DNA of 64,000 nucleotides from Escherichia phage UPWr_E1. The DNA lies in the sequence record PP418985.1. One strand, written 5' to 3'. Of the stretch, positions 14,464 to 62,560 are shown piece by piece (within the stretch, counting starts at the first letter, position 1; each line of letters begins with the position of its first letter). The position numbers were made by a program, and so were the translations under genes. Below the pieces are notes generated by a model. It was not told the origin of the DNA and searched no databases. It was given only the letters and a program-made list of their open reading frames with translations.

Positions 14464-14467
14464 TATT

Positions 14468-14953: not shown

Positions 14954-14965
14954 GAGGATTATATT

Positions 14966-48250: not shown

Positions 48251-48257
48251 GGTGAAG

Positions 48258-49604
48258 ATGAATAAATCAGTTACTTACCGCAGCCTTGAAAGCATTGTAC
48301 ATAATGAAGCTAAGGAATATGCGATCTATTCCGCCGAGGAACGCGGTATTCCTCAATTAGTAGATGGTCTTAAACCAGTGCAACGCTTTGTTATGGAATG
48401 TGCTTTGCAAAAGAGTAAAGGCGACCGTAAGAAATTCCGTAAGATGGCAGATATTGGATCTGGTGTTGCTGAGTTGGGTTATCACCACGGGGAAACTAAT
48501 GCCGTAGAAGCCGGATCACTTATGGCGAATACATGGAGCAATAATACTCCACTGCTTGACGGTCAAGGTAACTTCGGATCGCGTTTAGTCCAGAAAGCGG
48601 GTGCAGCACGTTATATCTTTGCTCGTGTGCATGAAAACTTCTTTAAAATCTATAAAGATATGAATTGCGCACCTAAGCACGAAGATCTGGAACACATCCC
48701 GCCATCGTTCTACTTGCCAGTTGTGCCAATGGTATTAGCTAATGGTATTAGTGGTATTGCTACAGGGTATAAAACTGACATTTTACCGCATTCACTGGAA
48801 AGCCTTATTGAATGCACAGAGCTAGCACTTGCCGGAAAACTGGATAAAGAACCTAGTGTTCAATTCCCAAAATTCACGGGTAAAGTTATCCCGCGCGATG
48901 ACCGCGATGGTGTTATTCTTGAGGGTACATATGAACTAAACGGCAAGACTAAGCTGACAATATCAGAAGTTCCTTATAAGTTCGACCGTGAAGAATATGT
49001 AGCTGTACTGGATGCACTGGAAGAAAAAGATCTGATTGTATCGTATAATGACCGTTGCTCTAAGGACGGATTCAGATTTGAGGTAACACTGAAACGTGAT
49101 TATTTCAAAAGCGAAGATGAATCCGCTCGACATGAGCAGATCATGAAGGATTTTAAGCTAACGCAGTTAGTAGCCCAGAATATCGTAGTAGTTAACGAAC
49201 GTGGTTTAGTAGAAGTATTCGAGAAAGCGAGCGATTTGATCCGTCGATTCGTCGAAATCCGATTAGGCTATGTAGATAAACGCATTGAATTGATGCAAGC
49301 CGAAACACTGGAAGCATACAATTATGCAATGGCTAAAGCAGAATTTATCGACCGTGTGATTAAGGGCGAAATCGAGCTACAGGGCAAGAAAAAGGCCGAG
49401 GTAATGCAATCCATCAATGAACATGAAAAACTTCGCCCATATGCCGATAAGCTCGTTTCTATGCCATTGTATAGCGTTACTCAAGAAGAGTACGATCGAC
49501 TGGTCAAAGATGCCGATAAACATCATAGTGAATATGAGTATTGGACAAAGACGACCGCAATGAAGGAATATAAGAAAGATCTTAAAGAACTTAAGAAGGC
49601 TTGA
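48258..49604 (+). CDS. 52: DNA topoisomerase II medium subunit gp52 (GyrA-like)
   Basis: DGLKPVQR start motif, GNFGSR region; about 448 aa (T4 gp52 about 442 aa); ATG 48258 after TGAGGTGAAG. Confidence 0.9.
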   Translation: MNKSVTYRSLESIVHNEAKEYAIYSAEERGIPQLVDGLKPVQRFVMECALQKSKGDRKKFRKMADIGSGVAELGYHHGETNAVEAGSLMANTWSNNTPLLDGQGNFGSRLVQKAGAARYIFARVHENFFKIYKDMNCAPKHEDLEHIPPSFYLPVVPMVLANGISGIATGYKTDILPHSLESLIECTELALAGKLDKEPSVQFPKFTGKVIPRDDRDGVILEGTYELNGKTKLTISEVPYKFDREEYVAVLDALEEKDLIVSYNDRCSKDGFRFEVTLKRDYFKSEDESARHEQIMKDFKLTQLVAQNIVVVNERGLVEVFEKASDLIRRFVEIRLGYVDKRIELMQAETLEAYNYAMAKAEFIDRVIKGEIELQGKKKAEVMQSINEHEKLRPYADKLVSMPLYSVTQEEYDRLVKDADKHHSEYEYWTKTTAMKEYKKDLKELKKA

Positions 49605-49810
49605 TTATGAAAGAATATCCAGAAGGCGGTTATATTGCATTTGTGTACAACAATGAAAAGATTGTACCGATGGTCGTTGAGACTATGGAAGAAGCCAACC
49701 GGATCACTATTGAATCTCTGAACAAGTTAGCAGAGATAACAAACACACCAGAACACAGAGCAACGATAGATTATTTGATGAAAGAATTTTTGGAGGGAAA
49801 GTATGACTGA
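49601..49810 (+). CDS. hypothetical protein (69 aa)
   Basis: ORF; ATGA overlap. Confidence 0.5.
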   Translation: MIMKEYPEGGYIAFVYNNEKIVPMVVETMEEANRITIESLNKLAEITNTPEHRATIDYLMKEFLEGKYD

Positions 49811-50198
49811 ACGACGCATCACTTCAAATGGTTTAGGTATCCATCATACATGGATGGTTGATCCAGACAAAAATCCTTATAAACTGTACGATAAAACCGT
49901 TAAACCGTGGAATAATAGCGTATGGGAAACATCACCAACAACAGCACCTATTATGACTGATCCGAAACCGATTAGCCCGATGGCAGATCCAGTACAGATT
50001 AAGCCGTTACCTTACCAGATAACGACCAATAGCATCGCCAACAAACAAGAAAATGATATTGATATGATCTACGAGATGATTAAACTTTGGCGTGATGTTT
50101 ATCTGGGTGTTCTCTATAACACAGATAAAAGTGCACATGAGGCGGCGTTACTGGCATCTCATGCGGTAGACGAAGCCAAAAAGAAATTTAGTAAGTAA
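49803..50198 (+). CDS. hypothetical protein (131 aa)
   Basis: ORF; terminator 50208-50236 follows. Confidence 0.5.
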   Translation: MTERRITSNGLGIHHTWMVDPDKNPYKLYDKTVKPWNNSVWETSPTTAPIMTDPKPISPMADPVQIKPLPYQITTNSIANKQENDIDMIYEMIKLWRDVYLGVLYNTDKSAHEAALLASHAVDEAKKKFSK

Positions 50199-50207
50199 CT
50201 GATTATT

Positions 50208-50230
50208 AAGCCGATCCTCGTGGTCGGCTT
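50208..50230 (+). repeat. 23-nt terminator hairpin repeat, copy 1
   Basis: AAGCCGATCCTCGTGGTCGGCTT; identical in inverse orientation at 61354-61376; same stem with a different loop at 12066-12088. Confidence 0.8.
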
Positions 50231-50236
50231 TTTTAT
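50208..50236 (+). terminator. intrinsic terminator (repeated element, copy 1)
   Basis: AAGCCGATC-ctcgt-GGTCGGCTT then TTTTTT. Confidence 0.8.
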
Positions 50237-50248
50237 TTTAAAAAGTTG

Positions 50249-50277
50249 TTGACTTCAAGAATCTAGCATTGCATAAT
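50249..50277 (+). promoter_or_regulatory. sigma70-type early promoter
   Basis: TTGACT 50249-50254; TGCATAAT 50270-50277. Confidence 0.65.
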
Positions 50278-50308
50278 ACACACAACTAAACAAAAAGGAG
50301 ACTCAAAA

Positions 50309-50515
50309 ATGAAAGTACGTTGCATTGAAACAGATCACATCAATTATAGCTTTAGTGTCGGGTGTGATTATGATGTTGATGTATTCACAGACAATAGCGG
50401 AAACACATTTGATGTAGTCCACGGCGACTATATTTGGTTTTACTTTGACAAACAACAACTTACTGCAACCAAACGAAACGGTGATCCGGTAGCAAAATTT
50501 GAAATAATCGAATAA
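50309..50515 (+). CDS. hypothetical protein (68 aa)
   Basis: Promoter 50249-50277; ATG 50309 after AAAGGAGACTCAAA. Confidence 0.55.
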   Translation: MKVRCIETDHINYSFSVGCDYDVDVFTDNSGNTFDVVHGDYIWFYFDKQQLTATKRNGDPVAKFEIIE

Positions 50516-50520
50516 AGTAT

Positions 50521-50555
50521 ATTGACACCAGAACAAGGGAGTAGTAACATACTCC
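50521..50555 (+). promoter_or_regulatory. early promoter with -10 inside hairpin loop (type II)
   Basis: TTGACA 50521-50526; GGGAGTA 50536-50542 / TACTCCC 50549-50555; TAACAT 50544-50549. Confidence 0.7.
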
Positions 50556-50580
50556 CACACCAAACAAAAGGAGAATCAAA

Positions 50581-50854
50581 GATGAACAACGAAAACAGCA
50601 AGGTGTTAGCAATTGCCGATAAAGTAGGCTATTGGAAATGCTGGGATGATATGGAGAAATTAGGCGGTCGCTATCTCGATAACTTAGAGTTGCATTATTG
50701 CCAAGCGCGTAATGCGGAAGTCGCGGGAGTAGCAATTGAAGATATTCCGTCTAAGATCTTCGGATTCTCGAAAGATGATACTTTAGAATATGTTTTCAAG
50801 GCTGTTATGGATCAAGCATGGGAAGACGCAGAGACACGCGCTCTTGATTGGTGA
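50581..50854 (+). CDS. hypothetical protein (91 aa)
   Basis: Stem-loop promoter 50521-50555; ATG 50581 after AAGGAGAATCAAAG. Confidence 0.55.
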
Positions 50855-50858
50855 TAAT

Positions 50859-51032
50859 ATGAACTGGTATAAAATTTGGAAAAATCAGGTGGAGGCTTAT
50901 CTAGGGTATAAGCCCACCGACGAAGAATTACTTGAAGCAATGTACGAAGACGGCCTAAATCCGAAAGTAGCCGCGCAAGAATACGCGGAATGGGTGAAGG
51001 TCGAAGATAATTTAAAATTCCATAAAAATTAG
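50859..51032 (+). CDS. hypothetical protein (57 aa)
   Basis: ATG 50859 after GGTGATAAT. Confidence 0.45.
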   Translation: MNWYKIWKNQVEAYLGYKPTDEELLEAMYEDGLNPKVAAQEYAEWVKVEDNLKFHKN

Positions 51033-51067
51033 TTGACGCCAAAGGTCGTCGGTAGTAAGATACTCCC
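51033..51067 (+). promoter_or_regulatory. early promoter with degenerate type II hairpin
   Basis: TTGACG 51033-51038; TAAGAT 51056-51061; 3' arm TACTCCC 51061-51067 kept, 5' arm degenerate. Confidence 0.6.
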
Positions 51068-51094
51068 ATACCGAAACGAAAGAAGGAGAATCAC

Positions 51095-51307
51095 ATGAAA
51101 TCTATTGAGCAAGTAGTGACTGAATTTATGAGCTACGAAGGAAACCGCATCTTTGGACGTTCTCAAGTTCGCGAGATCGTAGAAGAAGTTGCGGGAGAGT
51201 TTGCGGAATCTGGTCACGTTATCACACAAGAACGTAAAGAAGAAGCAGTAAGCCAGATCATGGCTATTCAGAAAATGCGTATTAATGCACGAGCGGGTAA
51301 AAATTAA
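51095..51307 (+). CDS. hypothetical protein (70 aa)
   Basis: Promoter 51033-51067; ATG 51095 after AGGAGAATCAC. Confidence 0.55.
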   Translation: MKSIEQVVTEFMSYEGNRIFGRSQVREIVEEVAGEFAESGHVITQERKEEAVSQIMAIQKMRINARAGKN

Positions 51308-51317
51308 AAAATAGTTG

Positions 51318-51346
51318 TTGACAGGGGATCGCCGATCCCCTACAAT
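51318..51346 (+). promoter_or_regulatory. early promoter with spacer stem-loop (type I)
   Basis: TTGACA 51318-51323; GGGGATC-gcc-GATCCCC 51324-51340; TACAAT 51341-51346. Confidence 0.75.
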
Positions 51347-51377
51347 GAACTCATCAAGACAACGAAGGAGAATCAAA

Positions 51378-51533
51378 ATGAAACATACTCACAAATTAAT
51401 GGTTAAATTTGAAGGCGCTAAAGGATATGAACGTTATGGTGTATTCTTCTCTGAGGATGATGCGTGGGATGCTGGTCTGGCAACGTTCTCTGAGCACAAC
51501 AACATTGAAGACTTTACTGTAGAAGAAATTTAA
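51378..51533 (+). CDS. hypothetical protein (51 aa)
   Basis: Stem-loop promoter 51318-51346; ATG 51378 after AAGGAGAATCAAA. Confidence 0.5.
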   Translation: MKHTHKLMVKFEGAKGYERYGVFFSEDDAWDAGLATFSEHNNIEDFTVEEI

Positions 51534-51541
51534 AAAAGTAG

Positions 51542-51576
51542 TTGACACCGGATTAAGGGAGTAGTAAGATACTCCC
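51542..51576 (+). promoter_or_regulatory. early promoter with -10 inside hairpin loop (type II)
   Basis: TTGACA 51542-51547; GGGAGTA 51557-51563 / TACTCCC 51570-51576; TAAGAT 51565-51570. Confidence 0.7.
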
Positions 51577-51604
51577 ATCAAGACAAAACACTGAGGAATA
51601 TATT

Positions 51605-52372
51605 ATGAAAAACCTGATCGCTGCTATCATTCTTTCTGCTACTGCTTTCGGTGCTAATGCTGCGTCCTTCGATTGCGCTAAAGCTACTACCAAATCAGAG
51701 AAGTTTATTTGCGCGAATGAGTCTATCTCCGAACTGGATTCTAAACTTCATGAAGTATATGTTAAAGCTGTTAAGATTGATCCGTCTCTGAAACAAGAGC
51801 AACGCAACTGGAATAAAACTGTTCGTGATACAATGATCAATATCGGGCAGATTCAGCCACTGGAGGCTGTATATAACGCTCAAATTCAAAACTTGATGAA
51901 TGTATTGCCTAAAGAAGAAACCTCGTCAGAAAGAGAATCAGAGGCTTCTGTGAAGGTTGAAGAACAACAACCGAAACAGGAAGAAAAAGTTGTAGTTCAA
52001 CCGAAGAAAGAAAAGAAACCACAAACCAGCGAGTTTACCTTGCAATGTGAATCTCACTTTAAATGGAAAAATATCGACGGAGCAAACACTAAGCCGAAAG
52101 CACAGCCATTTTATAAAGAGTACAATCCAGGTGAATTGACTCTGAAAGTAAAAGATGGTCAGATTATCCATTTTACATACATCGACAATAATGATGTGCA
52201 TAAGGCAAACACAAAACGAGTAGTTGATGACAACGGAATGATCGTTTTTAGCGGCTGGAAAGAAAATAAAAAGTATTATGTGTGGCGTGAACAGGATAGC
52301 GATATCATTCGCTTAGAAGTCCGCGAACAAGGATACTCTAAAATCTATGTTGACCAGTACGGGTGCAGATAA
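51605..52372 (+). CDS. secreted protein with N-terminal DUF1311 (LprI/YecT-like) domain
   Basis: Signal peptide MKNLIAAIILSATAFGANA; FDCAKATTKSEKFICANESISELDSKLHEVY fits the C..A....E..IC....L...D..L...Y DUF1311 signature; Lys/Glu-rich linker; stem-loop promoter 51542-51576. Confidence 0.65.
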   Translation: MKNLIAAIILSATAFGANAASFDCAKATTKSEKFICANESISELDSKLHEVYVKAVKIDPSLKQEQRNWNKTVRDTMINIGQIQPLEAVYNAQIQNLMNVLPKEETSSERESEASVKVEEQQPKQEEKVVVQPKKEKKPQTSEFTLQCESHFKWKNIDGANTKPKAQPFYKEYNPGELTLKVKDGQIIHFTYIDNNDVHKANTKRVVDDNGMIVFSGWKENKKYYVWREQDSDIIRLEVREQGYSKIYVDQYGCR

Positions 52373-52374
52373 TT

Positions 52375-52662
52375 ATGAAATTCAACAGCATGAAGATTAC
52401 AAAAGATTGGTGGAAGGCGATGCAAGATACTCCAGAAACCAAATTAAGCGAGACAACAACCACAATACAAGTTGATTACGAAGATCCTAAAGACATATAC
52501 AGAGAGATTTTAATCAGAGAGCTTATAAAAGCTGGAAACTATCAAACACCAGATGGCCTTATTGACATGATGGTTAAAGGTCTGTATAGTGGTAAAAATC
52601 CAGATGTTTTACCGTGGTACGAGGGATATTTTAAAACATATCGTGACCACAACCGAAAATAA
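52375..52662 (+). CDS. hypothetical protein (95 aa)
   Basis: ATG 52375 overlapping upstream stop. Confidence 0.5.
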   Translation: MKFNSMKITKDWWKAMQDTPETKLSETTTTIQVDYEDPKDIYREILIRELIKAGNYQTPDGLIDMMVKGLYSGKNPDVLPWYEGYFKTYRDHNRK

Positions 52663-52685
52663 GTTGTTGACGTGAGGATTATATT

Positions 52686-52877
52686 ATGGTAATTTTTAAT
52701 CGTGATGGTATTATAGTTCGACAGCATCCATTCCTTGAATACTATCAGGTTGAACAATGGGGATATGGGGATTGCTCGCGCTCATACGGTCAAAGCTGGG
52801 GATACCGTACAGTTTTTGAATCAACTAATATTGACAAAGTACGACAGAAAGTTTTAGAAATTCTTAACGATAAGTGA
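52686..52877 (+). CDS. hypothetical protein (63 aa)
   Basis: ATG 52686 after GAGGATTATATT. Confidence 0.5.
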   Translation: MVIFNRDGIIVRQHPFLEYYQVEQWGYGDCSRSYGQSWGYRTVFESTNIDKVRQKVLEILNDK

Positions 52878-52887
52878 GGATTACATC

Positions 52888-53256
52888 ATGGAAATTCAAA
52901 ACAATTACGAAAAATGTGTTATTATCAATGATCTGCAACGTCAATTGCACCACTACGAAACCGATTATAAAACAGCAACCAAAACTGGAAAGCTGAAAGT
53001 GTGGGAAGTCTGGTATAACCGGAACTATCTGGGGAGCATCCACAAACTTGATCGCAGTGATGTTTATACAATGCATGTAGGCGCTTGTGGTGAATCGGAT
53101 GTAGCATTTAATTTCATGGAAGCACTTGCATTCTATGTAGAATATCTGGTAGACTATATCGAGTTGGAAGAGGAAGTGGTAGAATTGCTTCCTCCACCGG
53201 AAGAAGCGCCGGAAGCAACGATCCTGAAAGCATTAAAGAAAATCTTTGTTAAGTGA
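52888..53256 (+). CDS. hypothetical protein (122 aa)
   Basis: ATG 52888 after GTGAGGATTACATC. Confidence 0.5.
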   Translation: MEIQNNYEKCVIINDLQRQLHHYETDYKTATKTGKLKVWEVWYNRNYLGSIHKLDRSDVYTMHVGACGESDVAFNFMEALAFYVEYLVDYIELEEEVVELLPPPEEAPEATILKALKKIFVK

Positions 53257-53264
53257 GGTGAACT

Positions 53265-53597
53265 ATGAAAAACGTACTGATTGTGTGGGAACTGATTCCA
53301 GAAACTACTGAATTATACATGGTACAGGTTGACAATAAAGAATTTGAAATTCTGAAACACGTCAACTGCAAATATATTAACATTGATGACATGACCCCAG
53401 AAATGGACTATGTAAACTATGCTCTCATGCAGCCTAGCTGGATTAGTGATGAAACTAAAGCAGACGCCGAATCGCTGGGTGTACCGGAAGAAGTATTAGC
53501 GAAATGGCATCAATTCAAAGTTGAAATAAAAGAGGGTGAACCGTTTATTCCTAGCGGTATGATCGATGCGGTGATTGTAACAGGTTTTCATATGTAA
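53265..53597 (+). CDS. hypothetical protein (110 aa)
   Basis: ATG 53265 after GTGAGGTGAACT. Confidence 0.5.
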   Translation: MKNVLIVWELIPETTELYMVQVDNKEFEILKHVNCKYINIDDMTPEMDYVNYALMQPSWISDETKADAESLGVPEEVLAKWHQFKVEIKEGEPFIPSGMIDAVIVTGFHM

Positions 53598-53609
53598 GGA
53601 CATTATACA

Positions 53610-53942
53610 ATGTTTAACTATGACAAATATGAATCATGGAAAGCGACCGAATTGAAAGAGGCAGCGCGGTTAATCACACCGCGTCTTTATCCGGTGTTGT
53701 TTAGCGCCGATAAAGTAACAAGGGAAGTAAACGAGGCGCTATCGGTTTTAGGTTATCTGATCGATAAAGTAGAGAAAACATCGGTATTCACAAATAGCGT
53801 AGAATATACCCGGTATAGAGTGTTTTTAGATTCCTTGCTCGTTGTTATTAAAGCACTAAATGATCATAACTACACCATGAACATGACGAAAATAATCGAC
53901 GAAGCAAGAATTATGACAGAGAATATTTTCGGTAAATTTTGA
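53610..53942 (+). CDS. hypothetical protein (110 aa), paralog of 54057-54380
   Basis: ATG 53610; C-terminus ...MTENIFGKF. Confidence 0.5.
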   Translation: MFNYDKYESWKATELKEAARLITPRLYPVLFSADKVTREVNEALSVLGYLIDKVEKTSVFTNSVEYTRYRVFLDSLLVVIKALNDHNYTMNMTKIIDEARIMTENIFGKF

Positions 53943-54056
53943 TTATGAAAGATGATGAATCATTGAAAATTGCACTGGTTATGCTATTACAATGTATAGA
54001 ATTAGCAAACCACGAAAAAATGTTGATACAGCAGCGTGAAACTATGAGAGGTGATT

Positions 54057-54380
54057 ATGATCGAGTTTGAAATTGACAACTTTCACGAAAAAGCAGAAGA
54101 CCTAACCAAAATTTTGATTAGTCGAGGTGCATATAATACGAAAGATATTATAAAAGAAGTTAATGTAGCGATGGACGCGATCCGAAAGGAATTTAAACAT
54201 ATTTCAGCGATTGGAGAAAATGGTCATCTTGAAGATGTTGAGCTGGTAGCACTGCGACGCTATTACTTCTTTGTTGATTGCATCATTGATCTAGCTAAAA
54301 ATTATAGCCATTACATGAAAGATATTGTAAAAGATGCACGTAAGCTGGCAGAGAATGTTTACGGGAAGTTTCCAGAATGA
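54057..54380 (+). CDS. hypothetical protein (107 aa), paralog of 53610-53942
   Basis: ATG 54057 after GAGAGGTGATT; C-terminus ...LAENVYGKFPE. Confidence 0.5.
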   Translation: MIEFEIDNFHEKAEDLTKILISRGAYNTKDIIKEVNVAMDAIRKEFKHISAIGENGHLEDVELVALRRYYFFVDCIIDLAKNYSHYMKDIVKDARKLAENVYGKFPE

Positions 54381-54625
54381 AATTAGAACAAGCGATTGTA
54401 TACTTTGAGATGGGCTATGATATTGCTCGTGTAGAGTGGGAAGATGGTGATTTTGTCCGATTGATTGATCTTCCAGAAACAGCTATTGCACTGGTCAAAG
54501 TAGAAAACGGCATACAACGAAATTATGCGTTCTCTGACGAAGACAAACAAGCCGATGACTGGTACGCTACCTGTTTTCATCATACAGCGTCAAAATGTGA
54601 TTCAGGGGCTTCTATGCGCCAATAA
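54377..54625 (+). CDS. hypothetical protein (82 aa)
   Basis: ORF; bidirectional terminator 54631-54657 follows. Confidence 0.5.
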   Translation: MKLEQAIVYFEMGYDIARVEWEDGDFVRLIDLPETAIALVKVENGIQRNYAFSDEDKQADDWYATCFHHTASKCDSGASMRQ

Positions 54626-54630
54626 AAAAG

Positions 54631-54657
54631 AAGGGGAGGCCGAAAGGCTTCCCCTTT
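54631..54657. terminator. bidirectional terminator between convergent early (+) and late (-) units
   Basis: AAGGGGAGGC-cgaaag-GCTTCCCCTT flanked by AAAAAAG upstream and TTT downstream. Confidence 0.75.
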
Positions 54658-54660
54658 AAG

Positions 54661-55317
54661 TTATCTAATCCTTCCGAGGATTCTGGCAGATTGATTGCAA
54701 AGAGTATCTAAATTCTCAATGTCAATATCTGGTTTATTCTTCCATGCAATGGCGATACTACCAGAATAGACATTATCGAGATTGAATATAGGACAAGAAT
54801 ACATGAATCCTATATCGATATTCTCTAATTTTTTCTCCCTCGACGGAATATACTGGAAATCTTTATCGGTAAAATAGGATTTACCTAAAAGATGCCTACG
54901 ATATTCTTCGCTCGTTTTATTGATAGGGAAGCCGCCTAAATTCTTTTCATCAATTGTATGTGGCAATTTTCCTTCGTATGCCACCAAATCAACGAAATAG
55001 TTTAGGTTTTTTGGACGAAAGCTAAAAACAGCAGAAAAATCGGCATCTGCCGACACATGAACTATCTGTAACTGCTCCTGTGCTGCATTATCAAAATTGC
55101 GGTCTTTTTCTACCTGGAGAACGTGAGCATAAGTCTCATAACGAGTTTCTTTATAAAGCGCAAACAACTCGTTTTTGCTATAAACGACAAATGCTAATAT
55201 AGACAACACAACGGCAGCAAAAACACGAAGTACGAGCAACTCCGTGCTTTTAGTTGTGAAAATAGCGCGCAGGACATTTGAGATAGCAAAGTCTTTCTCT
55301 TTTTCAGAAACTTGCAT
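54661..55317 (-). CDS. t: holin T (T4-type class III holin)
   Basis: 218 aa (same as T4 T); single N-terminal TM helix; LQIVH.S..ADFSAV.SFRPKNLNYFVD..AYEGKLP, RILGR as in remembered T4 T. Confidence 0.9.
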   Translation of the reverse strand: MQVSEKEKDFAISNVLRAIFTTKSTELLVLRVFAAVVLSILAFVVYSKNELFALYKETRYETYAHVLQVEKDRNFDNAAQEQLQIVHVSADADFSAVFSFRPKNLNYFVDLVAYEGKLPHTIDEKNLGGFPINKTSEEYRRHLLGKSYFTDKDFQYIPSREKKLENIDIGFMYSCPIFNLDNVYSGSIAIAWKNKPDIDIENLDTLCNQSARILGRIR

Positions 55318-55351
55318 ATAATGCCCTAAAAATAACTATGACAGTGTACCA

Positions 55352-55591
55352 TTATTTAGGTACTTGACTATCACCCGTTTTATTCTGCTCGTTGCTATCT
55401 TCCGTCTGTTCTTTATTAAACTCCTTATAAAGTTCTTCCACAAAACGGTCATCAATTGGCGTATTGGTATATGCCGCAAGACGACGAGCGCAATAGAAGA
55501 AAATTTTAGTGAGCATCTTTTCACTAATTAACTTTGATAATAATTTCATTCCGAAACTAGACAAAGCACCAATGACGATATTATAGACCAT
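55352..55591 (-). CDS. hypothetical protein (79 aa)
   Basis: ATG 55591 preceded on - strand by AAGGAG; N-terminal hydrophobic segment, acidic C-terminus. Confidence 0.55.
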   Translation of the reverse strand: MVYNIVIGALSSFGMKLLSKLISEKMLTKIFFYCARRLAAYTNTPIDDRFVEELYKEFNKEQTEDSNEQNKTGDSQVPK

Positions 55592-55642
55592 AGCCGTTTC
55601 TCCTTAGTAGTTCCCTTCCGTGGGAGCTTTCCTTAATTCTTT

Positions 55643-55945
55643 TTAGCGGTTGCTCAAACGTCTATAGCGAAGATGGGAAATACCCCTGTTTGTAGTTACC
55701 GTGATCGTTACTCCCTGCGGCACAATACAAGAATGGATCTGTCCCCAATCATGACCCTTATGACTCCCAGACACACAAAAGCCATGCAAAAGCAATTCAG
55801 AGTCACCGCCACCACCACCAGAAGAATGAGCACCAAATGAAACCGTACCGAAAGCGTCTGGTGTCCATCCATTAGGGATATCAAACCAACCCTGATTCGC
55901 TTTACCAGCTTTATTACCTAAAACACCATCTACCCACCATCCCAT
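55643..55945 (-). CDS. small glycine-rich paralog C (100 aa)
   Basis: GWWVDG...GWFDIPNGW...GGGGGD; start overlaps paralog B stop (TAATG). Confidence 0.6.
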   Translation of the reverse strand: MGWWVDGVLGNKAGKANQGWFDIPNGWTPDAFGTVSFGAHSSGGGGGDSELLLHGFCVSGSHKGHDWGQIHSCIVPQGVTITVTTNRGISHLRYRRLSNR

Positions 55946-56244
55946 TAATGCATTCTCCTAAATTGGAAGTGGTTTAAACTTCCTTTGCCAATACTAAAGC
56001 TGACAGTAGCGCCAGCACCAACTAAAGAACTAGCTCCCCAACTTCCTGCACTACCGGCGTGATGACCAGATTCAAGAGTACCGTTTACATATAGCTCTGC
56101 ATCTAGGTCATTACCAGCGGCTTCGGCATGAACAGATACAATACCGCATGAATCTGCCACCCAACCATTAGGAATACCAAACCATCCACCATTAGCATAA
56201 ATGCTAATAGCATTTGCCATTCTTCCAGCAATCCACCCAGCCAT
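55945..56244 (-). CDS. small glycine-rich paralog B (99 aa)
   Basis: AGWIAG...GGWFGIPNGW; 2 nt after paralog A stop. Confidence 0.6.
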   Translation of the reverse strand: MAGWIAGRMANAISIYANGGWFGIPNGWVADSCGIVSVHAEAAGNDLDAELYVNGTLESGHHAGSAGSWGASSLVGAGATVSFSIGKGSLNHFQFRRMH

Positions 56245-56246
56245 AA

Positions 56247-56543
56247 TTAAAACTCCATAAATTTAAAGTATTCAATCCCACCGACACCACCATGACCAAA
56301 TGTAACAGTACATCCAGCAGGAACAAACGCATTAACGGTAAATCCCCAATCCCCGCCACCACGACGACGAGCGGCAACTACACCATCAACGGAAATATGC
56401 ATATCACCCCAACCATCATTAGCATTATGCCGCAAAACAGCAACCCCTGCACGACTGGGTACATATCCATTTGGAATATCAAAAACATGCCATTTTAAAG
56501 CATCAATTTTAGTATTAATTTCACTACCGACCCAATATCCCAT
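56247..56543 (-). CDS. small glycine-rich paralog A (98 aa)
   Basis: MGYWVG...WHVFDIPNGY...GGGDWG...GHGGVGG; 38 nt downstream of gp37 stop, RBS TAAGGA. Confidence 0.6.
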   Translation of the reverse strand: MGYWVGSEINTKIDALKWHVFDIPNGYVPSRAGVAVLRHNANDGWGDMHISVDGVVAARRRGGGDWGFTVNAFVPAGCTVTFGHGGVGGIEYFKFMEF

Positions 56544-56554
56544 TTAAGATCCTT

Positions 56555-56573
56555 AGCGGGGAGAAATCCCCGC
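56555..56573 (-). other. intercistronic hairpin between gene 37 and glycine-rich paralog A
   Basis: + strand AGCGGGGA-gaaa-TCCCCGCT; same stem word as the type I promoter hairpins; T-run only on + strand side. Confidence 0.55.
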
Positions 56574-56581
56574 TATTTTAA

Positions 56582-59500
56582 TTAACCAAATAATTTAGCC
56601 TCAATTGCAGCAAGACGTTCACGAAGAATTTTATTTTCTTCTTTAAGAAGTGCAATTTCTTCTGTGTGTTCGTTGATTGCAGCAGTAATTAAACCAATAA
56701 CACCGTTATAGTTCAAACGAAGAAGGTTTTCACCAACCGGATCGCCTTCAACTAGTTCCGGTAAAATGGCTTGAACTTCTTGAGCAATCAAACCAGCATT
56801 AGGCTCCCATCGTTCGCTACCGTCTTCATTTACTCCGCGTTTTTGAAGATACATATAACCGTTAATTTTTGAAAGTGTCTGTGATGCATTTTCAAATTTA
56901 ACTAAATCCTTCTTCACGCGAATATCAGAACGGATATAAATGTCACGAACATATGTCGAATAGTTGTCATTCGCCTGAATCAAATGACCATGAGAAATAA
57001 TAGCTTTGTCAACTTCGGTCCATAAAGCAGCACCAACACTCCATAATCCAGGATGTTCTTGATGGAAGATACCCCATGAGGCAATATGTTGTCCGTTTGC
57101 CATCAGGTTAATACGTCCATCACCACCATGCGCTAAACCAGTGTCATTATCACCAATAGCAATTGATGCGCCTCCCCAAACCGGAACCGTACCAACACCA
57201 ATTCTAGGAGTTTGAATCAAAGGGCAATAAAACTGTCCGTTAGCATGAAACTCAAACACACCTTGTGGATGGTTAGCCCCTGGTGTAGCTTCCGCAGATC
57301 CAACACGAATAACAGCTTGTCCCCATGTTCCGGGAGTACGACGTAAGCCAAAGTCAGCCTTAGTAGAATATCCTTGACCTGTGATCTGGCTATGTCCTTT
57401 AATAAGTGGATAATAGCTATCTTGTCCAACACTACCCTGATCAATAAAGATAGGTGCTTCTTCGCGCCACTGTCCGTCCCATGAACCGGAATGATTAGCA
57501 ACCCACTGTGTAGCGTTTATATAGATGCGGTCTTTGCTAATACTAACATTATTAAAATTTTGTGGCGCAAGTGCTATCTCGCCATTATTCGTGATGTGTA
57601 TACCAGCCTGAGTTGCATAGCTATAAAATGCTAGCGAATTATCCGCACCACCTTTACCAATATACCAGTTATTATTTCCGCCTATATCACCGCGAATATG
57701 CAAAGAATTGCTAGCGGTAGTCGATAGTACAATCGCATCACCCGGACGTTTAATGGTTAGTCGACCGTCGGATTCAACTTCACCAAAGAACTTAGTTTTA
57801 ATTGCACCCGTCGCTAAAGTACGTTCAGTGGAAAAATGAGCGCCTTTGCTATCTTCTAACTGAATAATGTTATCACGAGCATTATTGCTATCACCCCAAT
57901 GATTAAACCGGAAATAATCGCGTGATTGCTTACCACCCGCTTCAAACGTCAGCGTACCTTTACTTAAATTAACATCACCACCAAAGGTAGCAGCAAGCGA
58001 ACTACTTTTTAATCTTAAAATATCAGCACCGCTAGTTCCACCTAAAGTAACATCACCAGTTTTGAATTGATAACGGAAAGGTCTATTTGTGTTAAAGTTT
58101 CCATCTTGATCATTTTCGTCGGTGGAAAGAATATAAAGACTTTCACCATCATTACGGAAAATTGTACCAAAATTACCGCCATACATTTTAAATGCATTGG
58201 ATGAACGGAATTTAACTTCTGTGTTAAAAGTTGTAGTTGATTTAAACGTTGTTGAACTACCGAAGTTAACAACACCATTAAAATCTTGTTGTGCTGTCCA
58301 TGTGTGGCGACCATCTTCCACAACAATACGGCGAACGGTATTAGTTCTATTTCCCGGATTACCAGCTACACGAACGACAAAATAACGGTAGTTAGCTTGT
58401 GACACAGTACCACGCCAAACCTGAACGGTGCGACCTGTTCCGGTATGCTCACTAGGTCCAACGGATAACATAATTAAGTTACCGTCAATCGTTCCCCAAT
58501 CCATATTTGCTGGCATGTTCTTGACTTTATTCAGCGGTACGCTATACATCCCGCCAGGAACAAAATCAAATGTTTGCCAGTCTAGCTCTGTTAATTGAGC
58601 TTTAACACCACCCATACCCAAAGTAATTGGCAGAGAATAAGATGTATATACTTCGTTCCATGTACCCCAAACGCCATTAGTATATGCGCGCTCAAAAATA
58701 CGTCCGCGAGTAGTTGCACCTGTTCCGGCAGTAGTAAATTTTTGGAAAATAGCACCACCAGAAGCACGCTGTTTAACTTCCAGCAAACCAACAATAACAG
58801 GCGGCAAACCTTCACCTGTAGGGCAGTTAATAACGGCATCAGTGCCTAAAATATTATATAAACCTGGAGTTTTAAAATCATTCAGGTTTCCGTCATAGAA
58901 AGTCGCTGGTGTGACATTACCTACTTGTTGCCACGGTCCCCATTTAGGCGCAGAAGCATCCCACGCAGCAGCAAGACAACGAGTATAAACAACACCAAAT
59001 CTGGTCGTATATCTCTGTGTGCGAGAATATTTTCCACCTTCATATACTTCTAAAAGTCCTTGAGCGGACGATCCTTCTTCTGGGAAATTTCTGTCAAAGG
59101 TAGCAATGGTATTTGAACTATTCCGCCACAAACCAAAATGTTCCGCGCCACCTAGATCATTAAGATCAATTGTGGTTGACAATGGACGAGTACCGGATTG
59201 AATATTTCTCCACACACCCCACGGACCATCAACACCATTCCATTTAGCAGACAAAGAACGAATATAAACATTTCCGTATCTAGTTGTATATCTCTGAGTT
59301 CCAGCAAATTGCCCAGCCGTAAACACTTCCAATACACCAACAGCATTTTCTTCTGGGAATTTATTTGCAGGTTGCGCATTTGTTGAAGTAGATTTAGACC
59401 AAATGCCAGTAAATTTACCAGTCGGTCCATAATTATCTAAATTTGCATCAGTTGGCAATTCGCCGCGAAAGTGTCCCAAAGTAATTACATTATTGCTGTC

Positions 59501-59626
59501 ATCTTTTGTATATAGTTCTCGATCCGCTAGGTTAATAGCAAGTTCACCCGGAGTTAGAATATTCGCATCCGGCTTGCGACCTGCCGTACTTGTTCTTTTA
59601 AATTGGATTCTCTGTAAATCTGCCAT
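56582..59626 (-). CDS. 37: long tail fibre distal subunit gp37 with C-terminal intramolecular chaperone domain
   Basis: 1014 aa (T4 gp37 about 1026 aa); between 36-like gene and holin; C-terminal about 120 aa contain SDIRVKKDL plus coiled coil, typical of peptidase S74 auto-cleaving chaperone domains. Confidence 0.85.
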   Translation of the reverse strand: MADLQRIQFKRTSTAGRKPDANILTPGELAINLADRELYTKDDSNNVITLGHFRGELPTDANLDNYGPTGKFTGIWSKSTSTNAQPANKFPEENAVGVLEVFTAGQFAGTQRYTTRYGNVYIRSLSAKWNGVDGPWGVWRNIQSGTRPLSTTIDLNDLGGAEHFGLWRNSSNTIATFDRNFPEEGSSAQGLLEVYEGGKYSRTQRYTTRFGVVYTRCLAAAWDASAPKWGPWQQVGNVTPATFYDGNLNDFKTPGLYNILGTDAVINCPTGEGLPPVIVGLLEVKQRASGGAIFQKFTTAGTGATTRGRIFERAYTNGVWGTWNEVYTSYSLPITLGMGGVKAQLTELDWQTFDFVPGGMYSVPLNKVKNMPANMDWGTIDGNLIMLSVGPSEHTGTGRTVQVWRGTVSQANYRYFVVRVAGNPGNRTNTVRRIVVEDGRHTWTAQQDFNGVVNFGSSTTFKSTTTFNTEVKFRSSNAFKMYGGNFGTIFRNDGESLYILSTDENDQDGNFNTNRPFRYQFKTGDVTLGGTSGADILRLKSSSLAATFGGDVNLSKGTLTFEAGGKQSRDYFRFNHWGDSNNARDNIIQLEDSKGAHFSTERTLATGAIKTKFFGEVESDGRLTIKRPGDAIVLSTTASNSLHIRGDIGGNNNWYIGKGGADNSLAFYSYATQAGIHITNNGEIALAPQNFNNVSISKDRIYINATQWVANHSGSWDGQWREEAPIFIDQGSVGQDSYYPLIKGHSQITGQGYSTKADFGLRRTPGTWGQAVIRVGSAEATPGANHPQGVFEFHANGQFYCPLIQTPRIGVGTVPVWGGASIAIGDNDTGLAHGGDGRINLMANGQHIASWGIFHQEHPGLWSVGAALWTEVDKAIISHGHLIQANDNYSTYVRDIYIRSDIRVKKDLVKFENASQTLSKINGYMYLQKRGVNEDGSERWEPNAGLIAQEVQAILPELVEGDPVGENLLRLNYNGVIGLITAAINEHTEEIALLKEENKILRERLAAIEAKLFG

Positions 59627-59660
59627 TTTATAAAATCCTTAACGGTTATTAGAATAATAT

Positions 59661-59690
59661 TATTTAGAAAAGCGGGGATAATCCCCCGCT
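59661..59690 (-). terminator. - strand terminator between the gene 36-like gene and gene 37
   Basis: + strand AGCGGGG-ataatc-CCCCGCT 59671-59690; on - strand followed by TTTCTAAATA. Confidence 0.55.
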
Positions 59691-59694
59691 AGAA

Positions 59695-61185
59695 TTAGAA
59701 AGTACCAAAATCAATTACCGCATTAAGCGGAACAGCGCCAACATCATCAGGAGTTGGTTTGTGTCCTTCGTGGTATAATTCAAATGTATCTGTGTCCTGA
59801 GTATTGTTTCGGGATTTAACGAAAATAATTTTAGAATCATGTGTGATGCCTAGTTTCTCGTGCGCTTTAATATCACTAACACGATGAATCATTGCTGTGC
59901 CATCTAAGCTATTAAGTCCAGCGTAGCAATTGTCACCATTATAGTTAGCTTTTGCTGTACGAACGCCGTTTGCAGCAGGAACTGTCAACGCACCTGTCAT
60001 GGTATCGCCAGTCACATTAACATAGCGAGCATCAGCCAATTTACGGTGATCTACATAGTTCCATGCGGTCCATGATTCATTAGAACAAGAACGCCAGCAC
60101 ATCGGATGATCAATAGATTCAGGATAATATACCTGAACAATTCGACGAGTACCGACCGCATCTTCTGGGCGATATACCATCAAAACGCCGTTATAATAGC
60201 TATCAGACGGTTTATTAGTACCTGATCCAGCATTTTCCACACGATAGATACCGCGATTAATAAGAGTGTTCCAATCAACGTTTCCAATGATTGTTGGATT
60301 TGCTACCATTGATTTTTTCTCAAAGTAGCTCAAACGAACCAATTCATTCGGACCAGCAGGATCGTTTGTCGCCAACATTCTAGGCGCTTGCAAGTTACCT
60401 TCCATAATATCACCAGCACGTTTAACCTGTGCATCATTGGTGACATTACCTAGTCCAACATCGGCTTTAGTTGGTTTATTGTTGGTGTGATAAAAACGAC
60501 CTTCTTTGCCATTAACAAAAATGGTAGGCTCATCTTTGCTACGGAATACCAACGTATCAAGAACGTTACCATAATAGATCTTAGTCGCATCAAAATTAAT
60601 TAAATCACGTCCCCTTGCAATTAATTTCGAATCAACCGATAGTTTAACAGTGACAGTGTTTAAATTATATGTTCCTGTGAGAGTATCACCGCGACGAGAC
60701 ACCAAATCTAAATCATTATTCGTCGGCTTATTAACAGGGCTATAGACGCGTTGACCAGTGTCTTTAATGGTTGTCCCTTCGATGGTCCCTTTAGTTTTAA
60801 AATCACCTGTGGTAGTGTCAATATAAGCCATGATAACATCATCACGAGCATTAACAAAGCCGATGGATTTCCACGAATGCAAACCCCAACTTACACCATC
60901 AAAGTTAGCAGCATCACTCTTGCCTTTAAAGATCCCGTTCTTTTTGGTTTCTCCACCGGATGCGCTACCTACGCTTAAACCTTCCTCAAAATGGACCAGT
61001 TTCTGAAATGTACCACCTTCGGTTGCACTGACGGAATCAGAATCTTCCGCCGTCGGCTTGTCAAACGCAGTATAGATTTTATGACCTTTATAGAAAAGCT
61101 GGTCCCCCGCTGGCTGGATCGTCAAGTTTCCTTGCGTCCAAATGGGAGATCCGCCTACAGTAGATCCATGTTTCAAATCTGCCAT
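59695..61185 (-). CDS. 36: tail fibre protein (gp36-like by position, 496 aa)
   Basis: Between 35-like and 37; late promoter TATAAATA 61219-61226 upstream; larger than T4 gp36 (about 221 aa), so assignment is positional. Confidence 0.55.
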   Translation of the reverse strand: MADLKHGSTVGGSPIWTQGNLTIQPAGDQLFYKGHKIYTAFDKPTAEDSDSVSATEGGTFQKLVHFEEGLSVGSASGGETKKNGIFKGKSDAANFDGVSWGLHSWKSIGFVNARDDVIMAYIDTTTGDFKTKGTIEGTTIKDTGQRVYSPVNKPTNNDLDLVSRRGDTLTGTYNLNTVTVKLSVDSKLIARGRDLINFDATKIYYGNVLDTLVFRSKDEPTIFVNGKEGRFYHTNNKPTKADVGLGNVTNDAQVKRAGDIMEGNLQAPRMLATNDPAGPNELVRLSYFEKKSMVANPTIIGNVDWNTLINRGIYRVENAGSGTNKPSDSYYNGVLMVYRPEDAVGTRRIVQVYYPESIDHPMCWRSCSNESWTAWNYVDHRKLADARYVNVTGDTMTGALTVPAANGVRTAKANYNGDNCYAGLNSLDGTAMIHRVSDIKAHEKLGITHDSKIIFVKSRNNTQDTDTFELYHEGHKPTPDDVGAVPLNAVIDFGTF

Positions 61186-61218
61186 AAAGTAACCTCAAAA
61201 ATTAGTTATAGTTCCGAG

Positions 61219-61226
61219 TATTTATA
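61219..61226 (-). promoter_or_regulatory. T4-type late promoter (TATAAATA) for the gene 36-like tail fibre gene
   Basis: + strand TATTTATA 61219-61226 = TATAAATA on - strand, about 34 nt upstream of ATG 61185 with GAGGT RBS between. Confidence 0.65.
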
Positions 61227-61344
61227 GAATGTTAACAAAATATCGCTTTGCGACGTGCCGTAGGCACTGATTATTTTTTAACCGAAACAAATTTTCTATA
61301 TTCTAAAGATCTTTCTTCGTTTTGGTTATGTTTTAACCAACTGC

Positions 61345-61376
61345 ATAAAAATAAAGCCGACCACGAGGATCGGCTT
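61345..61376 (-). terminator. - strand terminator after the gene 35-like gene (repeated element, inverted copy)
   Basis: + 61354-61376 is the exact reverse complement of 50208-50230; on - strand followed by TATTTTTAT. Confidence 0.75.
61354..61376 (-). repeat. 23-nt terminator hairpin repeat, copy 2 (inverted)
   Basis: Reverse complement is identical to 50208-50230. Confidence 0.8.
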
Positions 61377-61386
61377 GTTAAAAATG

Positions 61387-62526
61387 TTAATCAACATCAA
61401 ACTCTTTAAAGTTGTTGGATGTGATGTGTTTATTATCTCTAGGCAGCTTAAGAAGACTCATAACAGGGTTATCGAAATTGCCGTTATCCTGAATGTGAGT
61501 TGTTCTAATACCGTTAACACCAAAGGAAGTAGGTCCGGTAGTTTTGACGACACCGCTTATAGGAGTAATCAGGATGTTTCTAACCTTAACAACACCTTCA
61601 TTGGAGTTGGTTGGATATCTGATACAACCAGTTACTACACTATCGACACCTTCCGGTACAGTATAAACAGCTTCGAATTTTTCCCATTGATCTTTCTGGC
61701 TGGCATTGTAGCGAACGCCAGTTTTATATTGTCCCTCCATAAAATAGTTATGGAAGAATCGCGCTGTTACGTTGGCTGCTGCTGCGGCACTATCACGGAA
61801 CAATTCAAAAGATATTGATAGTTTGTCACCTGCCTTGATGTTAAAATCTTCAAGTGGTGCGCTGATCTCATCATGAGGCCATTGTATTAGCTCGAAATGT
61901 TCGGCATCTTCGCTAACATACTCGACCGGATAATCTAAAAATCGTTGTGGTGTTCCTGTAATTGCAAGATCATCTATAGTATCATAGACTTTCTCAATCT
62001 GTATAGATGAATCTTGCCCTTCTCCGTGAGTTGCTTGCATACCTTCACAAACAATTTTACCCATTTTAGTAGAGTAAATTGCTGCATACGATACACGAGG
62101 CATTTGCTGTAATAGAATATAATTAGGGAAAGACACAGATCCTAACTTAGCAAATATACCATCACTTACAACATCTGCAAATAGTTCTCCATGTGATGCC
62201 ATTGCGATAATATAATCCCCTTTCAGTAAAGAAAGATAATCACGCATTGCCAATACAGCACCACGACCATAGAATACCTTTTCTTCGTGTAATTGTCCAG
62301 TTGGAGTAAGAACTTTAAAGTTTAGGCCAGTCTCATAGCCAGTCCCGACGATCTCCACTCCATTAAATCTAATCCTTGCTGGTTTGGAAGAATCCGCATT
62401 AGATCCGCGCACTTCCAGCTTATACATCACAGAGTTGTTTTCTGAAATGCTTGTAAATGTCGCGGAGTCTTCGTCGAAATGCGCAAACTTAATTCCAGTA
62501 TTGCGTAATTCTATCTCTTGTGTCAT
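61387..62526 (-). CDS. 35: tail fibre hinge protein (gp35-like by position, 379 aa)
   Basis: Size close to T4 gp35 (372 aa); directly downstream of gene 34. Confidence 0.55.
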   Translation of the reverse strand: MTQEIELRNTGIKFAHFDEDSATFTSISENNSVMYKLEVRGSNADSSKPARIRFNGVEIVGTGYETGLNFKVLTPTGQLHEEKVFYGRGAVLAMRDYLSLLKGDYIIAMASHGELFADVVSDGIFAKLGSVSFPNYILLQQMPRVSYAAIYSTKMGKIVCEGMQATHGEGQDSSIQIEKVYDTIDDLAITGTPQRFLDYPVEYVSEDAEHFELIQWPHDEISAPLEDFNIKAGDKLSISFELFRDSAAAAANVTARFFHNYFMEGQYKTGVRYNASQKDQWEKFEAVYTVPEGVDSVVTGCIRYPTNSNEGVVKVRNILITPISGVVKTTGPTSFGVNGIRTTHIQDNGNFDNPVMSLLKLPRDNKHITSNNFKEFDVD

Positions 62527-62538
62527 AATAACCCCATA

Positions 62539-62554
62539 GGGGGCTTTCGCCCCC
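62539..62554 (-). other. intercistronic hairpin between gene 34 and the gene 35-like gene
   Basis: + strand GGGGGC-tttc-GCCCCC (GAAA loop on - strand); T-run only on + strand side. Confidence 0.5.
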
Positions 62555-62560
62555 TTTTAA

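Follow-up and report, generated by a model that had tools for sequence, protein, structure and literature searches.

A predicted transcription terminator hairpin in three related copies in the RB49-like phage UPWr_E1

The repeated hairpin of Escherichia phage UPWr_E1 reads as an ordinary transcription terminator, an element of a known kind that occurs in three related copies in RB49-like phages. The DNA analyzed here is a stretch of 64,000 nt (sequence record PP418985.1; the window) and belongs to a Krischvirus, an RB49-like T4-type phage. The 23-mer AAGCCGATCCTCGTGGTCGGCTT is found exactly at 50208–50230 on the + strand (copy 1, site 1) and, reverse-complemented, at 61354–61376 on the − strand (copy 2, site 2), and a related hairpin follows nrdD at 12066–12087 on the + strand (copy 3, site 3). 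We consider it about 80% probable that the three hairpins are paralogous Rho-independent terminators copied from one stem-loop of ~22–24 nt, with a single loop base completing the identity of copies 1 and 2.

A recount for mismatches between copies 1 and 2 gave none (23/23 identical), and the identity reaches 24 nt with one further T. As inverted repeats 11.1 kb apart, they form the longest inverted-repeat pair of the window (35 nt, 89%). No additional match to the 23-mer was found in the 64-kb window with up to three mismatches allowed, and 100 dinucleotide shuffles yielded 0 matches, with none expected, which agrees with the claim of the sequence-only reading that such reuse is unlikely to have arisen by chance. 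The same reading had assigned a GAAA loop and the same stem to the copy behind nrdD. The loop and the position are correct, but only the 5′ arm AGCCGATCC is identical in all three hairpins, and the 3′ arm of copy 3 (AGCCGATCCGAAAGGGTCGGCT, composed of AGCCGATCC-GAAA-GGGTCGGCT) has one extra G. As a result of this G, copy 3 folds into 9 continuous pairs beneath its GAAA loop (−16.6 kcal/mol) rather than into the 7 bp, bulged U and 2 bp beneath a UCGU loop that are predicted for copies 1 and 2 (−12.7/−12.8 kcal/mol). Compared with shuffled sequences, the z values of the folds are −3.3, −3.1 and −4.75 for copies 1, 2 and 3, respectively.

All three hairpins are sense-oriented and begin 5–10 nt past a stop codon, with a U-run behind them. 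Each has a G+C-rich stem of 9 pairs with a stable predicted fold, and the U-rich tracts directly 3′ of the three stems read TTTTTTATTTT, TTTATTTTTAT and TTTTTCGTTTTT. No U-run is found on the antisense strands; there, the folds of copies 1 and 2 are about equal to those of the sense strand, while that of copy 3 is weaker (−12.1 vs −16.6 kcal/mol). A new promoter is located downstream of each hairpin. The 9-pair stem, short loop, U-run and post-stop position are shared with canonical Rho-independent terminators, including the tetraloop-capped intergenic hairpins of T4; nothing mechanistic sets the present hairpins apart, and the only oddity is the occurrence of three with the same arms in one genome. 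It had been proposed that the hairpin ends both an early + strand unit and the late − strand gene 35. The anatomy, orientation and gene assignments bear this out, and termination itself is predicted, on the basis of this anatomy and of a different tested element. The latter is the stem-loop 211/210, not one of these hairpins, of a PeSL, a cassette of terminator stem-loop, sigma-70 early promoter and SD described for RB49 and phi1 (Arbiol et al. 2010, PMC2839356; Comeau et al. 2014, PMC4122927); according to PMC2839356, it terminates in vivo. The transcribed RNA would fold into the G+C-rich stem and, together with the U-run, release the host RNA polymerase. This release would work with the sigma-70 polymerase, in the early units whose last genes are nrdD and the ORF265c homologue, and also with the polymerase carrying the phage late sigma factor, in the gene 34–35 unit.

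The sequence-only reading overlooked the PeSL context of copies 1 and 3, which belong to such composites of terminator and early promoter, whereas copy 2 does not. With a PeSL profile, ~20 cassettes were recovered, without exception on the early strand; they include site 1 (E 1.8e-9) and site 3 (E 1.5e-8), both of which were in its training set. Sites 1 and 3, but not site 2, are framed on the early strand by a stop codon, an AT-rich stretch and SD plus start, and have a promoter of sigma-70 consensus adjoining the stem-loop. They share the full published layout of stop, AT-rich stretch, stem-loop, −35/−10, SD and start, and belong to the subclass in which the stem-loop lies upstream of the −35 box. 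Stems described as typical of the PeSLs of RB49 and phi1 are of the GGGG...CCCC type, unlike the stem GCCGAUCC/GGUCGGC found here, which also deviates from the GN-loop-CN type that is frequent, though not obligatory, in PeSLs; GGGG...CCCC stems are present in other cassettes of the window. At site 3, copy 3 begins 5 nt past the nrdD stop codon (12058–12060), its U-run spans 12088–12098, and the rest of the cassette (12094–12166, + strand) consists of the promoter TTGACA-17-TATAAT, SD and ATG. The nrdD gene is named as PeSL-associated in PMC2839356, and the site is conserved in 58/58 Krischvirus records. A wider spread, suggested by BLAST matches of site 3 in Pseudotevenvirus and Klebsiella phages, was rejected, as the hairpin of IME-CF2 differs in the stem core.

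At site 1, copy 1 (AAGCCGATC-CTCGT-GGTCGGCTT; U-run at 50231–50241) begins 9 nt past the stop codon of an early ORF of 131 aa (49803–50198, + strand). This homologue of RB49 ORF265c lies downstream of the topoisomerase gene 52 (48243–49604) and closes the unit that copy 1 would terminate. The rest of the cassette (50236–50311, + strand) comprises an AT-rich stretch, a sigma-70-type promoter (TTGACT-17-CATAAT at 50249–50277, a 10/12 promoter match), SD and an ATG at 50309. The annotation of GEC-3S places a promoter at this cassette, and orthologues of copy 1 carry terminator annotations in G2494, G2248, GEC-3S and TB34. Alignment further showed that a 276-bp block (50309–50584, + strand), composed of a 68-aa ORFan (50309–50515) and a second PeSL (50522–50584), is shared by the window and G2494 but missing from RB49, JSE and G2248; JK32 and FL04 likewise have a 207-nt ORF. 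The indel junction lies inside the cassette, in the conserved promoter-UTR/SD stretch. An ORFan insertion/deletion junction at copy 1 is typical PeSL behaviour, as predicted by the PeSL model. At copies 1 and 3, the terminator would insulate the unit before it, transcription would restart from a strong sigma-70 promoter 20–40 nt further on, and the cassette may double as a homology patch for the insertion and deletion of ORFans.

Site 2 belongs to the late tail-fibre module. Copy 2 begins 10 nt past the stop codon of gene 35, which encodes the proximal connector of the long tail fibre (61387–62526, − strand), and its U-run (61343–61353) is interrupted (UUUAUUUUU). It is predicted to be a stand-alone intrinsic terminator ending gene 35, and is annotated as a terminator in G2248, GEC-3S and TB34. 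The first gene beyond it is gene 36, the tail fibre hinge connector (59695–61185, − strand; ATG at 61185), upstream of which the T4-type late promoter TATAAATA (61219–61226, − strand) is invariant in 17 genomes; the late promoter consensus behind this assignment was taken from PMC1524935. The best sigma-70-like match in the 35/36 spacer is at background level (9/12, 61298–61270), and no match to the PeSL profile was obtained at site 2 even at E ≤ 10. Copy 2 is not a PeSL, because it lies on the late strand next to a late promoter and has no sigma-70 promoter; compared with the published PeSLs, it has the stem-loop only. Copy 2 would on its own split genes 34–35 from the gene 36–37 unit, which has its own TATAAATA late promoter. 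A local alignment hinted at a similarity between the sequence 3′ of copy 2 and the UTR that follows the promoter in PeSLs (p ~0.02, uncorrected). A decayed PeSL was rejected at this site, as the profile, trained on 16 cassettes, found nothing there at E ≤ 10 and the stretch corresponds to a separate repeat, R (see below). Among relatives, the spacer is stable except for small indels.

The relatives compared were taken from GenBank records, as a gp36 search of IMG/VR gave only 3 loci. Hairpins are present at sites 1 and 2 in all 58 Krischvirus records; the hairpin search itself returned at least two places in 57/58, since the divergent site-2 copy of kaaroe fell below its threshold. Stems and loops were read in 19 relatives, at site 1 in 18 of them and at site 2 in 17. 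The only stem change is that of a wobble pair to a Watson-Crick pair at site 2 of kaaroe (U-G to C-G), which improves pairing, and these 19 show no double compensatory change. With only one informative stem change, conservation alone does not tell a constraint on RNA structure from a sequence-specific one. The loops are CTTGT (15 relatives) or CGTGT (2) at site 1, where CTCGT is found in the window only, and CTCGT (6) or CATGT (10) at site 2, besides the stem variant of kaaroe. In the 17 relatives read at both sites, the two differ by 1–3 bases, 1–2 of them in the loop. In IMG/VR, 77 matches to the arm pattern comprise Krischvirus contigs and singletons in unrelated contigs, and whole-genome contigs recovered by this pattern have exactly three copies each. 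We infer that one stem-loop of ~22–24 nt was copied to three places before the Krischvirus (RB49-like) phages diverged; selection for pairing would since have fixed the stem at every site, with the loops drifting independently.

Exact identity over 23 nt is consequently not a conserved feature; what the relatives keep is the stem of 9+9 nt. Among the 58 Krischvirus records, the 23/23 identity is specific to the UPWr_E1 window, whose site-1 allele occurs in none of them, while its site-2 allele is common to 16. A single-base change in the loop of site 1 (T to C, CTTGT to CTCGT) would recreate the lineage's own site-2 allele and thereby the perfect match. Its cause was probably a point mutation rather than a micro gene conversion with site 2 as the donor. 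Conversion, in which site 2 overwrote the loop of site 1 and concerted evolution made or keeps the copies identical, is unlikely, though likelier than the other alternatives. The sole derived change at site 1 of the window is exactly the site-2 allele of the same genome, and the stems of both sites have no fixed difference. In addition, homologous recombination is very active in these phages; PMC2839356 maps PeSL crossovers in or beside the stem-loop, including inside a loop, and states that T4-type recombination needs less than 50 bp of homology. However, site-specific loops persist genus-wide, with TT and GT absent from site 2 and AT from site 1, and the stem change at site 2 of kaaroe has no counterpart at its site 1, so that conversion can be rare at best. 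The two copies share only 24 nt of homology. Furthermore, an accidental match by one transition among 2–5 free loop positions has a chance of ~1 in 6 to 1 in 15, which is not improbable over ~59 genomes.

Most of the 35/36 spacer is filled by repeat R (61243–61340), which is ~100 nt long and ends 13 nt from copy 2, excluding the hairpin. A second R copy is located in the divergent late intergenic region between gene 3 and gene 2 of standard Krischvirus genomes. An apparent homology of R running into the hairpin ("ACGAGGA" aligned to the SD of the 3/2 region) was dismissed as a 7-nt coincidence, because it is lost in genomes with a CATGT loop. The record of LF73P4 (OZ035795) contains an apparent rearrangement with one breakpoint 13 nt from copy 2. 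A breakpoint at the hairpin was ruled out, as the breakpoints map to repeat R, and the orientation of both recombinant junctions is not reconciled with a single inversion.

The 35/36 spacer is a mosaic of two dispersed repeats. Late spacers of Krischvirus might, like PeSLs, be assembled from a small pool of such repeats with a second role as recombination linkers, in which case the LF73P4 exchange would be real and the 23/23 match the footprint of a micro-conversion; we regard this as rather improbable. Candidate members of this pool are the family of GCCGAUCC hairpins, that of CGGGGAGAAAUCCCCG, and R (~100 nt), which precedes two late promoters. If so, modular shuffling of the PeSL type would extend into the conserved tail-fibre module, and repeat-mediated exchanges, if real, would bear on the swapping of tail-fibre (host-range) modules.

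The shared stem could also be recognized sequence-specifically by a protein of the phage or the host, acting in DNA recombination or in RNA binding and processing and coordinating the three loci, with termination being secondary. Its sequence, beyond its structure, is invariant at three sites genus-wide, and the PeSL authors speculated that conserved stem-loops may be targeted by a DNA-binding protein. However, at a genus-level divergence of ~6–7%, structural selection alone predicts invariant paired positions, and termination fully explains the post-stop position, the U-runs and the strand-correct orientation. With just three copies, no known candidate protein and loops that vary freely, although the loop often determines recognition, such a role seems improbable.

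Even less probable is that copies 1 and 2 serve as crossover sites inverting the segment with the early ORFan cluster, the holin gene and genes 36–38. This is suggested by their rank as the window's longest inverted-repeat pair and by the nearby LF73P4 breakpoint, which lies, however, in the separate repeat R outside the hairpin. Both orientations of the segment were not found in nature: across the 11 genomes that both flank searches list, the flanks are oriented alike relative to each other, and the spacing from site 1 to site 2 is ~10–11 kb in 57/58 records, LF73P4 being the exception. Inversion would also place early genes on the late strand. Independent invention of the three hairpins, converging under terminator constraint (AAGC...GCTT ends, G+C-rich core), would account for generic AGCCG...CGGCU-U-run terminators in unrelated phages such as IME-CF2, whose stem has a different core, and for ~70 single arm-pattern matches in unrelated IMG/VR contigs, but it is effectively refuted by shuffle statistics, which predict none, against 18 identical arm positions, including the same U-G wobble/bulge, at three sites in one 164-kb genome.

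Similar to REP/BIME and MITE-like repeats, the hairpin is a short imperfect palindrome at several intergenic sites in either orientation. Unlike these, it has only three copies at fixed orthologous sites, without terminal repeats or target duplications, and none in E. coli. A host origin was ruled out by 0 matches across 5,426 E. coli genomes. No Rfam match was found anywhere in the whole window, the hairpin included.

Beyond annotation, the importance of these paralogous terminators is small: UPWr_E1 gains three well-supported terminators and two PeSL cassettes. The eye-catching exact repeat would be a lineage-specific coincidence on top of an old paralogous terminator family. A modest addition is that the same stem-loop sequences serve early PeSLs and stand-alone late tail-fibre terminators, a paralogy of which no mention was found in the available parts of PMC2839356 and PMC4122927. 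The reuse noticed at first is real, but not peculiar to the 23-nt hairpin, because further stem-loop sequences are similarly reused in the same genome; a second exact 16-mer is common to an early cassette and the end of gene 37.

A search of the window for the 23-mer AAGCCGATCCTCGTGGTCGGCTT located it at 50208-50230 on the plus strand (copy 1), with its exact reverse complement at 61354-61376 (copy 2). The recount gave no mismatch, in line with the inverted recurrence claimed in the sequence-only reading, and the identity extends by one more base to 24 nt. Together with their A/T-rich flanks, these two copies form the longest inverted-repeat pair of the window (35 nt, 89%), which contains no further match to AAGCCGATCCTCGTGGTCGGCTT at up to three mismatches. 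The 23-mer did not occur in 100 dinucleotide-preserving shuffles, so that chance indeed seems an unlikely origin. The inner stem GCCGA...TCGGC is found at exactly three sites in the window versus 0.21 expected, the third being AGCCGATCCGAAAGGGTCGGCT at 12066-12087 (+) (copy 3). Both arms, 5′ AGCCGATCC and 3′ GGTCGGCT, are common to this copy and the other two, from which it differs by one additional G in the 3′ arm and by its GAAA loop. The proposed third copy after nrdD, with its GAAA loop, is thus present, while its stem is not strictly the same because of the extra G.

Copy 1 starts 9 nt past the stop codon of a 131-aa early ORF (49803-50198, +), a homologue of RB49 ORF265c downstream of topoisomerase gene 52. 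On its 3′ side follow TTTTTTATTTT, TTGACT-17-CATAAT (50249-50277), a Shine-Dalgarno (SD) sequence and an ATG at 50309. Copy 3, also on the plus strand, starts 5 nt past the nrdD stop; TTTTTCGTTTTT comes next, and then TTGACA-17-TATAAT, an SD and an ATG. Copy 2 lies on the minus, late strand, 10 nt past the stop of gene 35; it is followed by TTTATTTTTAT and a conserved stretch of ~100 nt, and a T4-type late promoter, TATAAATA (61226-61219, -; consensus from PMC1524935), is situated between this copy and the start of gene 36 at 61185. Since the plus strand of the window corresponds to the RB49 minus strand, the original assignment of plus as early and minus as late holds.

The RNA of copies 1 and 2 folds into 7 bp followed by a bulged U, 2 more bp and a UCGU loop (-12.7 and -12.8 kcal/mol, respectively), and that of copy 3 into 9 bp with a GAAA loop (-16.6 kcal/mol). 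The complementary strands fold comparably for copies 1 and 2 and more weakly for copy 3 (-12.1 kcal/mol), and all three are devoid of U-runs. With a U-run on one strand only, each copy is therefore unidirectional, and its orientation is the right one for the unit that it follows. Terminators have been annotated independently at the orthologues of sites 1 and 2 in phages G2248, GEC-3S and TB34, and at that of site 1 in G2494; the GEC-3S annotation also places a promoter after site 1. An Rfam search of the whole window yielded no family match. Combined, anatomy, conservation and independent annotation make a terminator role well supported for all three hairpins. The idea that one hairpin with its U-run ends both an early plus-strand unit and late gene 35 agrees with position, orientation and U-run, termination itself being a prediction.

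Promoter-early stem-loop (PeSL) cassettes, about 50 of which are described for each of RB49 and phi1, consist of a stop codon, an AT-rich stretch, a stem-loop, a sigma-70 promoter, an SD and a start codon, and nrdD is among the associated genes named in that account (PMC2839356). There, one PeSL stem-loop terminated in vivo as well as rrnB T1, and ORFan indels were explained by inter-cassette recombination with crossovers mapped to the stem-loop or adjoining it (PMC2839356). A PeSL pattern search of the window returned 20 matches on the plus strand and none on the minus strand, and the cassettes also emerge as repeat families D1-D3. A profile trained on 16 of these cassettes gave ~20 significant matches in the window, all on plus and including sites 1 and 3: 1179, 1467, 3534, 4213, 7443, 8349, 9589, 12094, 13231, 20654, 27475, 33758, 37093, 42802, 43170, 50236, 50506, 51016, 51300 and 51526. 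Sub-families are distinguished by their stem-loops, such as GGGGATC...GATCCCC between -35 and -10 or GGGAGTAGTAANATACTCCC overlapping the -10. In contrast, the spacer between tail-fibre genes 35 and 36 had no profile match even at E<=10. Copies 1 and 3 are therefore stem-loops of PeSLs, and late-strand copy 2 lies outside any PeSL. The hairpins are of known kinds, namely predicted intrinsic terminators, two of three within PeSL cassettes. Alignment further showed a block (50309-50584), made up of a 68-aa ORFan and a second cassette, that the window shares with G2494 and that is missing from RB49, JSE and G2248; JK32 and FL04 also have a 207-nt ORF. The junction of this block falls within the conserved promoter-UTR/SD stretch of site 1, which thus behaves as a PeSL with a textbook PeSL-mediated indel.

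The regions of sites 1 and 2 match 58 Krischvirus records (RB49, phi1, JSE, GEC-3S and others) at 92-99% identity. The hairpin at site 1 is present and site 3 is kept in all 58, and 57 have at least two hairpin places, kaaroe being the exception because its site-2 copy, which is more divergent, was missed at the threshold of the search. In IMG/VR, the arm pattern matched exactly three times in each of two whole-genome contigs, and the remaining ~70 matches were singletons in unrelated contigs. Hairpins were inspected in 19 relatives (18 at site 1, 17 at site 2, 16 at both). Their stems are invariant save for a U-to-C change at kaaroe site 2, which turns a wobble into a Watson-Crick pair. The five-nt loop at site 1 is CTTGT in 15 relatives, CGTGT in two and CTCGT in the window only, while at site 2 it is CTCGT in six relatives and the window, CATGT in ten, and a variant in kaaroe. 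Because loop alleles are site-specific and the stem is common, the conserved entity appears to be a family of three paralogous hairpins, old and spread across the genus, rather than the 23/23 match.

No other inspected genome showed 23-nt identity between sites 1 and 2. With a 30-nt query including invariant flanks, the site-1 allele of the window proved absent from all 58 records (47 with one mismatch, 12 with two), and its site-2 allele was exact in 16. The perfect match is thus specific to this genome, hinging on a single T-to-C transition in the site-1 loop. This transition reproduces the site-2 allele of the same genome, as would be expected if site 2 had overwritten the site-1 loop by micro-conversion, and very short homology can suffice for T4-type recombination. 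However, loop alleles stay site-specific throughout the genus, which counts against frequent conversion, the kaaroe site-2 stem change is absent from kaaroe site 1, and one substitution among a few freely varying loop positions has a reasonable chance of producing an accidental match. We therefore regard conversion as less likely than a point mutation.

An inversion between copies 1 and 2 is very improbable, as both regions keep the same relative orientation in the 11 genomes found in both searches and standard spacing in 57 of 58 records. The exception is the unannotated assembly of LF73P4 (OZ035795). Most of the 35/36 spacer is taken up by a repeat, R (~100 nt, 61243-61340), containing two small hairpins (GTGCC-NNN-GGCAC and TCGC-AAA-GCGA). 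In standard genomes such as G2248, a second R, inverted, ~91 kb away and ~93% identical, lies in the late intergenic region from which gene 3 and the ORF in front of gene 2 diverge; on the late strand, R precedes a late promoter at both loci. LF73P4 carries two recombinant joins, 3-R-hairpin2-35-34 at 56.7 kb and 37-36-R-gene 2 at 141.5 kb. A breakpoint in the hairpin was dismissed, since the breakpoints fall within R, 13 nt away. In this single linear record, the join orientations are incompatible with one inversion, leaving either a real double rearrangement through two inversions or a misassembly. The hairpin had no match among 5,426 E. coli genomes, which speaks against a host origin, and the best match in other genera, Citrobacter phage IME-CF2, has a different stem core.

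The early region (49000-51500) reaches at most about 94-96% identity to any record, whereas the tail-fibre region (60200-62700) is 99.3% identical to G2248. This contrast (~94-95% versus 99.3%) indicates a mosaic genome and suggests recent exchange of the tail-fibre module. Two points alone would be mildly new, namely that PeSL stem-loops are paralogous to terminators of the late module and that the 35/36 spacer is a mosaic assembled from repeats.

Another stem-loop, CGGGGAGAAATCCCCG, occurs exactly right after the gene 37 stop (56557-56572) and between the -35 and -10 of an early PeSL (20678-20693), and with one mismatch at 1484-1499 in another PeSL (~0.01 matches expected by chance). Stem-loop reuse is therefore not special to the 23-nt hairpin. 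The gene 37 copy lacks a U-run on the late strand and so may not terminate there. The stem-loops of this genome thus fall into a few sequence families that serve early cassettes and the late tail-fibre module alike. A hairpin at 54630-54657, strong and close to a perfect palindrome, has U-runs on both strands and sits at the junction of the early (+) ORF cluster and the late (-) holin gene; it is likely a bidirectional terminator, as annotated in GEC-3S. Three tandem paralogous small ORFs at 13966-15316, spaced ~495 nt apart, have a start sequence in common, ATGAAATGGGAA..GGTAAGA (repeat families D5 and D13).
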